Assembly: GCA_963765205.1 (NCBI GenBank) | Contig: CAVXVB010000005.1 | Location: 448,001 to 512,000, forward strand | Direction: 5' to 3' | DNA from: an uncultured Verrucomicrobiae bacterium | GTDB taxonomy: Bacteria > Verrucomicrobiota > Verrucomicrobiia > Opitutales > JABDGR01 | Length of the DNA stretch: 64,000 nt | The notes under the pieces: generated by a model | What the model was told of the DNA's origin: nothing | Seen by the model: only the letters and a program-made list of their open reading frames with translations | Database searches by the model: none | Translations under genes and position numbers: made by a program | Shown here: piece by piece, positions 25,212 through 32,133 of the stretch | How positions within the stretch are numbered: the stretch's first letter is position 1 | How the letters are laid out: each line of letters starts with the position of its first letter

Positions 25212-26753
25212 ATGTCATACTTGATCGGCCTCGACGTGGGCACCTCCTCGGCCAAAACCGTGCTGATGGACGAACGCGGGCGCGTGGTTTTTACTACCGC
25301 GCCGGCCTACTCCTTTCGCACGCCAAAACCTCTCTGGGCCGAGTCCGACCCCGCCGATTGGTGGGCCGCCGCCGTCACCGCGCTGCGCGAGCTGTTCGCC
25401 CGCTCCGGCGTCGCGCCGGGCGACATCGCGGGCGTGGGCCTGACGGGCCAGATGCACGGCCTCGTGCTGCTCGACGCGCGCGGCGAGGTTTTGCGCCCCT
25501 GCATCATGTGGAACGACCAGCGCACCGCCGCGCAATGCGCCGCGCTCACCAAAAAAATCGGCCGCGCACGCATCCTGCGCCTGACGGGCAACCCCGTGCT
25601 GCCCGGCTTCACCGCGCCAAAAATCGCCTGGGTCGCCGAGCACGAGCCGCAGGTCTTCCGCCGCATCGCCAAAATCCTCCTGCCGAAAGATTACCTGCGC
25701 TACAAACTCTCCGGCGAATTTTTCACCGACGTATCCGACGCCTCCGGCACCTCCCTGCTCGATGTGGCGAAGCGCCGCTGGTCGGACGAGATGTTGCGCG
25801 CCTGCCGCGTCCCGCGTGCCTGGCTCGCGGAAGTCACCGAGTCGCCCGTCGCGTCCGCCAAAGTTTCCGCCGCGGCGGCGAAGGCGACTGGCCTGCGCGC
25901 AGGCACGCCCATCATCGCGGGCGCGGGCGACCAGGCCGCCGGCGCGGTCGGCTGCGGCATTGTGCGGCCCGGCGTCGTCTCCTGCACGCTCGGCACCTCG
26001 GGCGTTGTCTTCGCGCACGCGGATAAATATGCCCCCGATCCGCAGGGCCGCCTGCACGCGTTCTGCCACGCCGTGCCCGGCAAGTGGCATCTAATGGGCG
26101 TGCAGCTTTCCAGCGCCGGCTCGTTCCAGTGGTTCAAAAATAATTTTGGCGGCGAAGAAATCGCTCGCGAACAAGCCGGTGGCCCCAACGCCTACGATTC
26201 GCTCACTGCCGCCGCGGCCACGGTCCCCGCCGGCTGCGAGGGCTTGATTTTCCTGCCTTATCTTTCCGGCGAGCGCACCCCGCACCCCGACCCCAACGCA
26301 CGCGGCGTTTTCTTTGGTCTCACGCTGCGGCATGGCAAGGCGCATCTGGCGCGCGCGGTGTTGGAGGGCGTCACTTACGGCCTGCGCGACGCGCTCGAAT
26401 TGATGCGCGGACTGGGCCTCAAGCCCCGGGAAATCGTCGCTTCGGGCGGCGGCGCGCGCAGCGCGTTCTGGCGGCAAATGCTGGCGGACAATTTCGGTGC
26501 GCCCATCGTGACGGTGAGCGCGGCGGAAGGCTCGGCTTACGGCGCGGCGCTGCTCGCCGGCGTCGGCGCAGGCGTCTGGCCCACCGTCGAGGCCGCCTGC
26601 ACCGCCTGTGTGACGGAAACCAGCCGCGTCCAGCCCCAGCGCGCCGCCGCTGCGGTTTACCGCGATTATTATTCGCATTTCCGCGCGTTGTATCCGATGC
26701 TCAAAGGCGAATTCGCCGCCCTGGCCGCCACGGTGGCGCAGCACCATGGTTGA
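25212..26753 (+). CDS. xylB: Xylulokinase
   Basis: GLDVGTSS, GQMHG, WNDQR, LGTSG, FLPYLSGERTPH, GGGARS. Confidence 0.95.
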   Translation: MSYLIGLDVGTSSAKTVLMDERGRVVFTTAPAYSFRTPKPLWAESDPADWWAAAVTALRELFARSGVAPGDIAGVGLTGQMHGLVLLDARGEVLRPCIMWNDQRTAAQCAALTKKIGRARILRLTGNPVLPGFTAPKIAWVAEHEPQVFRRIAKILLPKDYLRYKLSGEFFTDVSDASGTSLLDVAKRRWSDEMLRACRVPRAWLAEVTESPVASAKVSAAAAKATGLRAGTPIIAGAGDQAAGAVGCGIVRPGVVSCTLGTSGVVFAHADKYAPDPQGRLHAFCHAVPGKWHLMGVQLSSAGSFQWFKNNFGGEEIAREQAGGPNAYDSLTAAAATVPAGCEGLIFLPYLSGERTPHPDPNARGVFFGLTLRHGKAHLARAVLEGVTYGLRDALELMRGLGLKPREIVASGGGARSAFWRQMLADNFGAPIVTVSAAEGSAYGAALLAGVGAGVWPTVEAACTACVTETSRVQPQRAAAAVYRDYYSHFRALYPMLKGEFAALAATVAQHHG

Positions 26754-28197
26754 GACCTCCGCAAAATTTTCCGCCGCCACGCGCGCACTCGTGCGTGCGC
26801 TCGGTGCCGCGCAAGTGCGCACGGACGAGGCCGTGCGCCGCACCGCGTCGCTCGACAATCTGCGGGTGTCCTTCCTCCCCGCGGCAGTCATTTTTCCGAA
26901 AAACGACGCGGCCATCGCCACTGTGCTGCGTCTCGCCAATCAACACCGCGTTCCAGTGACGCCCCGCGGCGCGGGCAGCTCGACGACCGGCTCGGCCTGC
27001 CCGGTGCGCGGCGGCTGGGTGCTCGATTTGTCGCGCTGGAATAAAATCGAGATTGACCCGCTGGCGGGCCTCGCGCACGCCGGGGCCGGCGCAGTCACCG
27101 CCGCGATTGACGCCGCCGCCGCGAAGCACGGGCTGTTTTACCCGCCGGACCCGTCGTCGCTGCATTATTGCACCATCGGCGGCAACCTCTCGCTGAACGC
27201 CGGCGGGCTGCGCGGCGCGAAATACGGCGTGACGCGCGACTACGTCCTCGCGCTCGAAGGCTTTTTGCCGACGGGCGAAAAAGTGCGTTGGGGCGCGCCG
27301 CTGCGCAAATTCGCCTCGGGCTATAACCTGCGCGACCTGTGGATTGGCGGCGGCGGCACGCTCGGCGTCATCACCGGCGCGACGCTCCGGCTCGTCCCGC
27401 GCCCCGCCGCGCGGCACACGCTGCTCGCCGCGTTTGCGAACGAAAGCGCCGCCCTGCGCGCGGTGCTGGCCATCATGCGCGCGCGGCTCGTGCCCTCGAT
27501 TTGCGAATTTCTGGACCGGCCCACGGTCGTCTGCACCGAGCGCAAATGGGGCCGCCCGGTCTTCCCGCAGGCCCCCGGCGCGGCGCTGCTGCTGCTCGAA
27601 GTGGACGGCTCAGCCGCGGAAGTCGCCGCGCAGAAAAAGGCCCTGGCCCGACTTTTGCGAAAATCCGGCGCGCTGGCCCTGCGCGACACCGGCGACCCGG
27701 CCGCGGCGGAAAAACTCTGGCAAGTGCGCCGCACCTGCTCGCAGGCGATGTTCCAGATGGGCGACGCGAAACTTAACGAGGATGTCGTTGTGCCGCCGCG
27801 CGCCTATATCCCGCTGCTGACTTATGCCCGCGCGCTCAGCCGCGCCACCGGCCTGGCCACGCCGACTTACGGGCACGCAATGGACGGCAATTTCCACGTC
27901 CACCTCATGTATCATCGCAGCGACCCACGCGAATGCCGCCGGGCGGAACGGGGCGTGGCCGAGCTGATGAAAAAAGTCCGCGCCCTCGGCGGCGCCATCA
28001 CCGGCGAGCACGGCATCGGCCTGGCCAAATCGCCCTTCCTGCGCCTGCAACACGCCCCCGCGGAAATCCAGGCGATGCGGGCCATCAAAAAAGCCCTCGA
28101 CCCGCGCAACATCCTCCACCCCGGCCAGATTTTTGACCCTGTCTCCGTCTGGCAGTTTCCGCATGTCAAAGTGAAGTTGCCGTGGGATAAGGACTAG
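26746..28197 (+). CDS. FAD-linked oxidase, GlcD / D-2-hydroxyacid dehydrogenase family
   Basis: PRGAGSSTTG, YPPDPSS, GGNLSLNAGG, KYGVTRDYV, GHAMDGNFH, TGEHGIG, DPRNILHPG. Confidence 0.9.
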   Translation: MVETSAKFSAATRALVRALGAAQVRTDEAVRRTASLDNLRVSFLPAAVIFPKNDAAIATVLRLANQHRVPVTPRGAGSSTTGSACPVRGGWVLDLSRWNKIEIDPLAGLAHAGAGAVTAAIDAAAAKHGLFYPPDPSSLHYCTIGGNLSLNAGGLRGAKYGVTRDYVLALEGFLPTGEKVRWGAPLRKFASGYNLRDLWIGGGGTLGVITGATLRLVPRPAARHTLLAAFANESAALRAVLAIMRARLVPSICEFLDRPTVVCTERKWGRPVFPQAPGAALLLLEVDGSAAEVAAQKKALARLLRKSGALALRDTGDPAAAEKLWQVRRTCSQAMFQMGDAKLNEDVVVPPRAYIPLLTYARALSRATGLATPTYGHAMDGNFHVHLMYHRSDPRECRRAERGVAELMKKVRALGGAITGEHGIGLAKSPFLRLQHAPAEIQAMRAIKKALDPRNILHPGQIFDPVSVWQFPHVKVKLPWDKD

Positions 28198-28299
28198 CAG
28201 AGGGACAAAGGGACAGAGGCACTAAGGCACTGAGGGCCGAAGTTTGGGTCACTTGTTGGTTTTGCGGTTTGGGCGGCGTCTCTATTATAAACACCCGCC

Positions 28300-29562
28300 A
28301 TGGATGACCACGAACTGCTGCGAGAATACGTCGAGCGCCAGTCGGAGCCAGCCTTCGCCGAACTGGTGGCGCGGCATGTGGATTTTGTCTATGCCACGGC
28401 CTGGCGCGTCATGGGCGATTCGGCGGCGGCGCAGGACGTGGCGCAGGCCGTATTCATTCATCTGGCGCGCAAGGCCTGGACGGTGCGCGACGGCCGCGCG
28501 CTCGTCGGCTGGCTCTACCGCGCGACGTATCGCACCGCGCTCGACACCCGGCGCGGCGAACAACGCCGCCGCCAGCGGGAGACCGACGCCATGATCCTGA
28601 CCGAACAAAACTCCACTTCGCCCGCCGCGTGGGAAAAGCTCGCGCCGCTGCTCGACGAGGCGCTGCAACAGCTCAGTCGCGCCGAGCAAAACGCCGTGCT
28701 GCTGCGCTATTTCGAGGGCAAGACCCTGCGCGAAACGGGCGCGGCCCTCGGCACGACCGAAGACGCCGCGCAAATGCGCGTCAGCCGCGCGCTCGATAAA
28801 ATGCGCACCCACTTCGCGCGCCACGGCATCACCGTCGCGACCGGCGCGTTGGCCGTGGCCCTCTCGGCGAACACCGCCAAGGCCGCGCCCGCCGGGCTGA
28901 CCACGCGCGTGACCGGGACTTCCCTGGCCGGCGCAAGTGGCGCAGGATTGGGCGGAGCAATGTTGAGAATTCTTTTTATGAGCACCAAAACTAAAACAAT
29001 CCTCGCCGTCGTCATTGTCTTGGCTGTTGTCATCGGCTTAAAATTCACCCTGTGGCAACCGGCGGAATCAACCACTTCCGTCAAGACGGCTACCAACCTT
29101 ACCGCGAGCAGCGCACCACCTGCCGCCGCGTTGCCGACCGCCAGACCTCCCGCCATCCTGCCCCCCACCACGCCTCCAGCCCCGGCGAGAAACGTGGCCA
29201 GTTCAACCGCGGTGGTAGCCAACCCGCCGGTCAACGAGCAGGTCAATATTGATGAGGCCACCGTCTTCGTAACGCAGTCAATTCAGACGCCTTTGCTGTC
29301 CTACAAGCTGGCGATGGGGCACTACCCCTCGACGGAAGATGGCTTGGACGCGCTCGTGGATGTCCCGATCCACGATAACGCCGCGAGCTGGAAAGGTCCC
29401 TATTTCAATACCACCGTTGTGCCGCTGGATCCCTGGGGCCACCCATATGAATACGCCTTTCCATCAATTCACGGCCAAGTCGATGGCAGATACGATGTCT
29501 GGTCCGACGGCCCGGACGGCATCAACGGCTCCGCCGACAACATCGGCAATTGGGAGAAATAA
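28300..29562 (+). CDS. ECF sigma factor fused via a TM helix and linker to a GspG-type pseudopilin C-terminal domain
   Basis: Sigma regions 2 and 4 (AFAELVARH...DVAQAVF...GWLY; LLRYFEGKTLRETG...RVSRALDKMR), TM ILAVVIVLAVVIGL, Pro/Thr linker, then YKLAMGHYPSTEDGLDALV...WKGPY...DPWGHPYEYAFP...YDVWSDGPDG...DNIGNW. Confidence 0.85.
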   Translation: MDDHELLREYVERQSEPAFAELVARHVDFVYATAWRVMGDSAAAQDVAQAVFIHLARKAWTVRDGRALVGWLYRATYRTALDTRRGEQRRRQRETDAMILTEQNSTSPAAWEKLAPLLDEALQQLSRAEQNAVLLRYFEGKTLRETGAALGTTEDAAQMRVSRALDKMRTHFARHGITVATGALAVALSANTAKAAPAGLTTRVTGTSLAGASGAGLGGAMLRILFMSTKTKTILAVVIVLAVVIGLKFTLWQPAESTTSVKTATNLTASSAPPAAALPTARPPAILPPTTPPAPARNVASSTAVVANPPVNEQVNIDEATVFVTQSIQTPLLSYKLAMGHYPSTEDGLDALVDVPIHDNAASWKGPYFNTTVVPLDPWGHPYEYAFPSIHGQVDGRYDVWSDGPDGINGSADNIGNWEK

Positions 29563-29594
29563 CAGGCCGATAGTCGCAATCGGCGCGTTTCTTC

Positions 29595-29750
29595 CGTCCC
29601 GGGGAGCGCGACCGTCCCGGTCGCTGCGGTCGGCGTCTCGCCGACCGCTTCTTGGCCAACGCGGCGGTGTAGCGCATTCCCCGCTTTCTCAAAGATGTCC
29701 TCGGCGAGACGCCGAGGACGGCGGGCGGGACGCCCGCGCTCCCCGGGACG
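29595..29750. mobile_element. 156-bp MITE/REPIN-like palindromic element
   Basis: Perfect 16-bp terminal inverted repeat CGTCCCGGGGAGCGCG; nested hairpins (gcggtcggcg tct cgccgaccgc; gtcctcggcg aga cgccgaggac). Confidence 0.7.
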
Positions 29751-29820
29751 ATAACGCTGCTTCTAAAAGCCCCAAAAAATTCAGCGTTGGTATCAGAACC
29801 AAATGGCCCCGCCCCATTCC

Positions 29821-30543
29821 TCACGCTTCCGGCCCGGTTTGCGCTTCTTCCCAGAGCAGGAATTGGTATTCGCGGCGGCCAATCCAGAGGATAAAGAAAA
29901 ACAGGGCGGCAAGCAGATACGCCTTGAGTAGGAGCGCGACAACGATGCCCGCGACGGCGACGCAGCGGCCGATGTTGAGCGCCCAGCGCGTGGCGCGCAG
30001 GTAATCGAGCTTGAAGGCCAGCAGCGCGCGCAGGATGCGCCCACCGTCCATCGGGAACGCCGGCAGCAAATTAAAACAGCCGAGCACGAGATTGGAAACC
30101 AGCAGGAATTCCAGAATGTCGTGCCAATGCGTAGTCGGCAGCGTGTCGTCCGACAAGTCCGCCGGCCAGCCGCCGAGCAGGGCGAGGCTGAGGCCCGCGA
30201 TAATGAAATTCACCGCCGGGCCGGCGGCGACGATGAGCAATTCCTCGCGCGGGCTTCGCGGTAGTCGGCCCAACAGCGCCATGCCGCCAAAGGGCAGCAG
30301 CACGATGTGCTGCACAGCAACACCCAGCTTGCGCGCGGTCAGCGCGTGGCCGAATTCGTGCAGCACGACGCAGGTGTAAACCAGCGCGACCGCGCCGAGG
30401 CTCTGGAACAAGCCGCGCCAGGGGTGGTGCGGCTCGTCCATCCAGCCCTGCGCGCCGACCACCAGCGGCAGCAGGTAGAACGTCGGGTGCAGCTCGAGGG
30501 TGATGCCACGAAAGCGGAATAACTTCATTGACCCGAAGGGCAT
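29821..30543 (-). CDS. Site-2 protease (M50 family intramembrane metalloprotease)
   Basis: LHEFGH (HExxH), LLPFGG, AAGPAVN, FNLLPAFPMDGGR. True start taken at MPFGSMKLF; the upstream part of the tracked ORF is a shadow of the NtrC gene. Confidence 0.9.
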   Translation of the reverse strand: MPFGSMKLFRFRGITLELHPTFYLLPLVVGAQGWMDEPHHPWRGLFQSLGAVALVYTCVVLHEFGHALTARKLGVAVQHIVLLPFGGMALLGRLPRSPREELLIVAAGPAVNFIIAGLSLALLGGWPADLSDDTLPTTHWHDILEFLLVSNLVLGCFNLLPAFPMDGGRILRALLAFKLDYLRATRWALNIGRCVAVAGIVVALLLKAYLLAALFFFILWIGRREYQFLLWEEAQTGPEA

Positions 30544-30609
30544 GAGGATGAATGTTGTTGGGTTCGGAAGGCCGCGAACGCGCCGCCTCCGCCAAGTTGA
30601 ATTCCCATC

Positions 30610-32133
<1,524 letters not shown>

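Follow-up and report, generated by a model that had tools for sequence, protein, structure and literature searches.

A pseudopilin-type GspG head on a membrane-tethered ECF sigma factor of an uncultured verrucomicrobial bacterium

The IutY/ECF243 type of sigma factor combines a FecR-like periplasmic domain with a cognate outer-membrane receptor. PVC bacteria very often encode tethered ECF sigma factors whose ectodomains vary. Membrane-tethered types with extensions that are already known include IutY, SCO4117 and ECF57, as set out in the available parts of PMC8999054 and of PMC7826278, the main text of which makes no mention of Verrucomicrobia. IutY, from Pseudomonas putida, acts in iron cell-surface signalling and is the only proteolysis-activated fusion characterised experimentally, being cleaved by Prc and then by RseP (PMC8999054, in part). 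Proteolytic activation has also been proposed for SCO4117 and the actinobacterial groups ECF48, ECF52 and ECF53, in which sigma core, transmembrane (TM) segment, proline-rich stalk and distal folded domain follow one another, and ECF57 is typified by a WD40-like extension with two conserved cysteines (same source). Planctomycete ECF sigma factors, ECF57 and its kin among them, appear in the accessible sections of Pinto et al. 2020 (PMC7671368) as duplicated sigma cores with captured extensions and discordant trees.

The gene described here was found in a window of 64,000 nucleotides, the whole stretch of DNA that was analysed, from an uncultured Verrucomicrobiae bacterium, the genome of which comprises 12 contigs and is 92% complete. 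It is a single frame of 420 amino acids without internal stops, and the features of the locus are as follows.

26746..28197, forward strand: FAD-linked oxidase gene upstream of the fusion, left border of a variable slot
28249..28284, forward strand: promoter-like motif of ECF type (TTGT..G-TTT, then a spacer and GGCGGCGTC), lying 15 nt ahead of the ATG and common to paralogous ECF genes
28300..29562, forward strand: fusion gene encoding ECF sigma factor, hinge, TM helix, stalk and GspG head (ORF, Pfam, hydropathy, AlphaFold)
28363..28569 (aa 22-90), forward strand: Sigma70_r2 (Pfam, E 2e-10, over cut-off)
28651..28806 (aa 118-169), forward strand: Sigma70_r4_2 (Pfam, E 3e-10, over cut-off)
28825..28977 (aa 176-226), forward strand: hinge of conserved cytoplasmic helices, candidate built-in anti-sigma element (model, paralogue conservation)
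28885..29004 (aa 196-235), forward strand: crossover zone from P0005-like sigma to P0002-like TM-stalk-head (switch in identity)
28978..28980, forward strand: internal Met227 (MSTKTK) in an AT-rich context, possible second start (GC3)
28996..29049 (about aa 233-250), forward strand: single TM helix (hydropathy, AlphaFold)
29056..29235 (aa 253-312), forward strand: disordered stalk rich in Pro, Thr and Ala (translation, AlphaFold)
29245..29553 (aa 316-418), forward strand: GspG (T2SSG) soluble domain, starting at the point where the hydrophobic helix of the pilin stops (Pfam, PulG alignment)
29359..29394 (aa 354-365), forward strand: variable loop aligned with the PulG/OutG 69-83 loop, following the host GspG (alignment)
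29503..29541, forward strand: putative Ca2+ loop by alignment, D406, S411, D413 and N414 corresponding to PulG D117, S122, D124 and D125
29821..30549, reverse strand: M50 site-2 protease, convergent neighbour, candidate releasing protease

A sequence-only reading had proposed an ECF sigma factor, a TM helix, a Pro/Thr/Ala linker and a GspG head lacking a prepilin site, and Pfam, hydropathy and AlphaFold bear this out; every GspG/PulG hallmark motif that it quoted is present in the translation, and the C-terminal domain does match T2SSG (aa 325-418, E 3e-23, 82 bits against a cut-off of 21). Sigma2 and sigma4 are joined by a short linker, with neither sigma3 nor sigma1, the arrangement of ECF (group 4) factors; TIGR02937 scores 72.6 bits (cut-off 42.9), and Foldseek with the full model returned sigma factors only, the best of them ECFs. 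The head aligns to the solved PulG structure 1t92 (E 3e-15). There is one hydrophobic peak, at about aa 231-250 (Kyte-Doolittle 2.25), and in the AlphaFold model a sigma core of high confidence is followed by three helices in the hinge and a TM helix at 229-250, from which the topology in the membrane is predicted, with an unstructured, low-confidence stalk (253-312) and a low-confidence head, including when the head is modelled alone (pLDDT 51).

Like IutY, the protein carries its sigma core and membrane-bound extension in one chain; unlike it, the ectodomain is a GspG head, release is a prediction only, and neither a FecR-like domain (Pfam) nor a receptor among the scanned neighbours was found. 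The order of parts is that of SCO4117 and ECF48/52/53 (described in the available part of PMC8999054), but those carry a zinc finger (ZAS), whereas the fusion has a distal pseudopilin head, no ZAS and not one cysteine among its 420 residues; the WD40-like extension and cysteines of ECF57 are likewise absent, T2SSG being the only domain that Pfam finds after the TM helix. The T2SSG domain, specificity loop and putative Ca2+ loop correspond to those of GspG, PulG and OutG, from which the fusion differs in lying outside the gsp operon, with no link to gsp genes in its neighbourhood, and in lacking the class III signal, the G/F site, the pilin helix and E5. Pfam finds no N_methyl match in it, against one in the host's true GspG, and the GspG profile TIGR01710 falls below its cut-off (73.3 against 88.85), as the match sets in only at profile position 42 and the 41 preceding ones are absent. 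As in planctomycete ECFs, sigma cores have been duplicated and extensions captured, but here swaps fall at the conserved hinge before the TM helix or at the stalk end instead of being inserted at random, and purifying selection acts on what was captured; no T2SSG entry was found in the accessible portion of the planctomycete extension table of Pinto et al. 2020. A search of the literature outside subscription journals returned no sigma-GspG fusion. The new element is thus a GspG module on a tethered ECF, and its recurrence, mapped swap and host-matching head go beyond an ordinary captured extension.

That the fusion might be an assembly chimera is ruled out, because full-length sigma-T2SSG fusions recur independently in other assemblies (at least four, one of them in G009, a genome of the same genus). 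Contigs from public runs of one study, possibly the source sample, are identical over 28226-28532, 28527-28677, 28664-28861, 28679-28924 and 28921-29628; since none of the pieces listed bridges 28921-28924 by 31 bases, the reads neither prove nor question the hinge in 28300..29562.

The pairing of sigma factor and T2SSG was found in at least 12 protein clusters, the window's own included. Among the 120 matches listed for the initial protein search were four further full-length fusions (P0002, P0003, P0004 and P0006, the last at the same locus in G009). The C-terminal 281 aa, used as query in an exhaustive search, led to P0125, P0129, P0161, P0172 and the partial P0177, these being the five positives of 24 candidates scanned, picked from 150 matches listed, while P0268 and P0269 came from a profile search. 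Sigma relatives that bear names belong to Verrucomicrobiota, and G401, a genome from the Opitutae, encodes a related fusion, which points to a PVC and probably an Opitutae host. In a tree of 42 heads, a subset of an 88-row set, 14 of them labelled fused (counting L038, whose contig opens within the stalk, and the sigma-less L040) against 28 other rows, a single origin of the fused heads was rejected (p-AU 0.008), as was a single clade for the sigma cores of five fusions (p-AU 3e-5). Fused heads fall into at least three separate groups, namely the window's genus, G401 and one distant group, and by these trees the pairing has arisen several times independently. Within the genus the fusion was found in two of seven genomes, the others being 50-92% complete. 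An order-wide search found clean frames of more than 400 aa only in the window's genome and G009 among the 150 matches listed, along with long frames containing an internal stop in G225, G129 and G382 among the matches listed; a region search with 73 candidates says little because it missed the known fusions P0003 and P0004. GspG heads also appear as mobile modules elsewhere, doubled or tripled with no prepilin motif, combined with LRRs, or following DUF805 (P0127, P0131, P0137, P0138, P0142 and P0163).

Paralogous ECF genes have a common upstream motif. In the 20 paralogues used for the matrix its end lies 13-23 nt upstream of the homologous start; the leave-one-out score is 17.8 before the fusion and at least 12.9 in 18 of the 20 upstream regions, and the G401 fusion, outside the training set, scores 28. 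The fusion is therefore probably autoregulated through its own motif. The genome has 98 sites scoring at least 13, against 27 in shuffles, and the top ones belong to ECF genes; the matrix mixes paralogues, and therefore does not define a sigma-specific regulon. High-scoring motifs also precede a few non-ECF frames (C4:243726, C7:290347, C2:133540, C9:660876, C8:214689 and C9:922982), which are candidate members of the regulon. The hinge helices (181-191, 200-213 and 218-225 in the AlphaFold model) are conserved across paralogues, and a complex model of the hinge (aa 176-232) with the sigma core scored 0.45, where the best control gave 0.00, a result graded weak: of 157 solved pairs 116 reach the mark, as do 2 of 215 mismatched ones, and scores of 0.60 or less among those reaching it come from 18 solved and both mismatched pairs. 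Runs agreed in at least 90% of contacts, with a partner pLDDT of 61-62. Proteases of the S41 (Prc-like) type are encoded at two loci of the genome and those of the M50 type at four, and there is a T2SS operon.

Two T2SSG matches were found in the genome, the fusion and a true prepilin GspG at the start of the T2SS operon on another contig (C8:17604-18146), the head of which is 65% identical to that of the fusion. The fused head is under purifying selection: dN/dS is 0.11-0.25 in five of six pairs, the sixth being saturated at synonymous sites, compared with 0.15-0.25 for native gspG and 0.20 for the fusion's sigma core. These values led to the rejection of a decaying pseudogene piece. In a first tree, the heads of the window's genome (G000) and G009 each grouped with their own host's GspG. 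When the head was split at the PLDPW motif, a cut chosen post hoc, after the data had been seen, the host GspG ranked first of 71 non-fused heads for the N-half in G000 (66%), G009 (75%) and G401 (48%, the margin being 48 to 47%), and 17th, 17th and 38th for the C-half. Rare residues common to the N-half and the host numbered 12, 16 and 9, against 9, 11, 9, 2 and 4 in five cross-host controls, and in the genus set a single clade of fusions is rejected by the N-half (p 0.012), whereas the C-half (0.12) and the whole head (0.26) do not reject it. Synonymous sites of the fused heads carried no host signal (5 host-matching, 1 fused, 5 neither). The C-halves of the five closest fused heads are 73-89% identical among themselves, against 59-70% to natives. 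Host-matching of the N-half, in three pairs, is thus suggestive; recent gene conversion from gspG is unsupported, fused/native dS in the N-half being 1.8-2.0 over about 60 codons against 0.67-0.82 for flanking genes compared between these genomes, and on the present pairs co-evolution cannot be told apart from an old conversion or capture. Just upstream of the true gspG lies an orphan fragment of a gspG C-terminal half (C8:17342-17452; L001:1038-1160), and in relatives there are 2-8 matches, most of which are GspG-like genes arranged in tandem; many of the matches lack a canonical prepilin motif.

The reading we prefer, and to which we give an even chance, is an IutY-like sigma/anti-sigma hybrid released by proteolysis, with the GspG head serving as a proxy that gates the first cut. 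We infer autoinhibition, proteolysis, signal and regulon as follows. The sigma core would be kept inactive at the inner membrane by the TM anchor and its own hinge helices, and regulated intramembrane proteolysis would free it, by analogy with IutY. The ectodomain would be a domesticated copy of the host GspG soluble domain, unable to enter a pilus; folded, Ca2+-bound and unengaged, this pseudopilin-head proxy would resist site-1 cleavage, until its unfolding, or its binding of a natural partner of the GspG head (secretion substrate, minor pseudopilin or secretin), allowed the protease to cut. The freed sigma factor would then transcribe from the family promoter, its own gene included. Candidate signals are a GspG partner, Ca2+ or folding, or none that is specific. 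In its favour count the recurrence of the pairing, the purifying selection, the host-like N-half with its specificity-type loop, the Ca2+ ligands kept in most fused heads, the hinge complex score, the proteases and T2SS operon of the genome and the IutY precedent. Counted against this model are the post-hoc split, the narrow first rank in G401, the whole-head p of 0.26, the silence of synonymous sites, the lack of enrichment for Ca2+ ligands and their loss from two fusions, the absence of the motif from gsp promoters, the differing sigma cores that carry the head, the detection of the fusion in only 2/7 genus genomes and the pLDDT of 51 for the head.

Fusion aa 1-195 are 97% identical to P0005, which has another ectodomain, and 49% to P0002, whereas the TM-stalk shows 66% identity to P0002 and 35% to P0005, and the head 76% and 22%, respectively, so that the swap can be followed at residue resolution, a sigma core from one paralogue having been joined to the ectodomain of another through a crossover in the hinge. 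The records of P0002 and P0005 both name a contig 14,651 bases long, and because of these records and of the tandem ECFs in G009 they are probably arranged in tandem; the mosaic is most simply read as the product of a deletion that joined two tandem paralogues within the conserved hinge. G401 and G402 have a common sigma and stalk with a different ectodomain, the swap falling at the stalk end. Swapping in this set extends the planctomycete duplication-and-capture process, as far as the available part of PMC7671368 describes it. The genome has 17 paralogous tethered ECF cores with unrelated extensions (2-37 across family members), and the slot between FAD oxidase and M50 protease holds zero to two ECF genes in relatives: one with a different ectodomain in G006, two in tandem in G009, the second bearing the GspG head, and a TM-stalk-head gene without sigma in L040. 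No ECF was found in the slot of G007 and G003, where the protease is nonetheless present, which weakens the case for the M50 neighbour as a dedicated partner of the fusion. Calcium exchanger (Na_Ca_ex) genes lie in the slot at L082:6725-7945 (G007) and L083:4910-6076 (G006). In G008 the slot-flanking genes stop at contig edges, and a 3-kb contig (L154, C291) with two tandem ECFs of the same type and non-GspG ectodomains may fill its slot.

Such turnover fits the idea that the ectodomain was captured from the host by recombination and kept simply as a protease-resistant cap holding the sigma factor off, with no pilin-specific signal. GspG heads are small, stable, abundant and adapted to the periplasm, and so would be captured often, as their occurrence on other anchors, doubled or behind DUF805 illustrates; the unrelated extensions of the 17 paralogues, the relatives' slots with other extensions or no ECF, the G401/G402 pair and the unrelated extensions captured by planctomycete ECFs (PMC7671368, in part) all point the same way. 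Folding alone would account for purifying selection, and capture from the host for the resemblance to its GspG. A single capture does not, however, predict host-matching confined to the N-half with C-halves nearer to other fusions, and the fusion has at least three separate origins with about the same domain boundary; we consider such a cap somewhat unlikely, if a serious contender. Whether captured extensions regulate, a question raised in the available text of Pinto et al. 2020 (PMC7671368), is testable by point mutants of the fusion because its ectodomain has solved homologues, a known ligand (Ca2+) and known functional loops.

A stronger version of a gating head is a one-protein monitor of the T2SS in PVC bacteria. 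Here the head would be a bait, its helix and specificity loop co-evolving with the host GspG, and sigma would be released when secretion stalls or cargo builds up. In the available part of PMC13081927, the 69-83 loop of OutG/PulG sets secretion specificity, and the N-half of the fused head, which matches the host, includes the specificity-type loop (numbered on the fusion head by counting back from D117), the C-half including the Ca2+ loop. We think it unlikely that such a monitor operates, and similarly doubt that a bait binding the same partners as GspG (substrates, minor pseudopilins or secretin) has been built repeatedly. If the head were a bait, it would offer a handle on which partners the variable loop of the major pseudopilin binds; the fusion would translate the state of the T2SS into transcription by means of one of that system's own parts, and could serve as a natural reporter of the partners of the GspG head.

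The Ca2+ ligands of PulG are D117, S122, D124 and D125, and PulG without Ca2+ is degraded in vivo (PMC13081927, in part), so that the head could instead be a dedicated sensor of Ca2+ or periplasmic folding, unfolding at low Ca2+ and exposing the protein to proteolysis with no involvement of the T2SS. By alignment, the fusion keeps the D117, S122 and D124 equivalents of this predicted site, whereas the host GspG has lost those of D117 and D125; moreover, conservation among genus fusions is highest in the C-half (dN 0.09-0.19), and the exchanger genes of G006 and G007 occupy the same slot. However, D125 is Asn in the fusion, exchangers are absent from the loci that carry fusions, and the ligand motif, present in 12 of the 14 fused heads and in 59 of the 71 native ones, and so lacking from two of the former, is therefore not enriched over natives; for OutG, heads of this kind can be stable without Ca2+ (same source, in part). 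A dedicated sensor thus appears distinctly unlikely. Major pseudopilins without canonical D117/D125, unusual for GspG, are encoded at C8:17604-18146 and in G005 (C144).

The selected product might also be a sigma-less anchored GspG head begun at Met227, acting as a T2SS decoy or accessory, with the sigma factor as a replaceable passenger. The sigma-less gene in the slot of L040 (L040:2466-3089, P0126) is intact and conserved, starts 11 nt past the FAD oxidase stop and begins at a Met matching Met227; other anchored heads without a prepilin site exist. GC3 is 0.35 in the five codons before the internal Met, against 0.77 in the sigma core, in the 15 of 20 paralogues analysed, the other five lacking the search pattern, and the internal ATG context is AT-rich and weakly folded in 12/15. 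By its sequence context, Met227 may possibly start a second, sigma-less anchored head; as the main selected product it is very unlikely, since the internal Met is family-wide and independent of the head, the strict motif occurs in only 69/120 homologues and 15/20 paralogues, the sigma core is itself under purifying selection (0.20) and L040 is known from one contig.

In work attributed to Nivaskumar in 2016, recruitment to the assembly platform is said to require pilin residue E5. The sequence-only reading had suggested that the head mimics a pilin and engages the assembly platform or the pool of pilins, working like PilS/PilR in one chain; while the host has a T2SS operon and the head is most like its own GspG, such a counter of pilins that regulates their expression is extremely improbable because there is no pilin helix, G/F site or E5, a 60-residue stalk keeps the head off the membrane, PilS of Pseudomonas aeruginosa, a six-TM histidine kinase acting via sigma54 at the pilA promoter, contacts PilA directly through transmembrane segments (PMC6058289, in part), and the family motif is absent before gsp clusters (1.4 in G000, 4.3 in G009 and 0.4 in L039, against 26 for the fusion gene), so that the idea of the family promoter driving the gsp operon was rejected. 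The fusion, with one TM helix and no kinase, has only the idea of a pilin-tied membrane regulator in common with PilS/PilR, and unrelated sigma cores carry the head; its sigma output is not fixed, because the cores are only 46-49% identical. What stands of the earlier proposal is the one-component, membrane-tethered architecture with a selected head resembling host GspG; the PilS/PilR mechanism, lacking pilin helix, E5, gsp promoter motif and linkage, finds no support, and head-gated proteolytic release remains the reading we favour.

Among the other ECF paralogues of the genome, C7:125111-124338 (257 aa) has no family similarity after its sigma core and looks frameshifted, and C4:182048-184339 has an ectodomain that presumably resembles a serpin. 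Rfam gave no match over 27500-31000. Downstream of the fusion, positions 29595-29750 form a 156-bp imperfect palindrome with 70-nt arms that are 77% complementary; it is a dispersed repeat, with 39 blastn matches in the genome, several of them full-length at 86-91%, and numerous partial matches in soil contigs.
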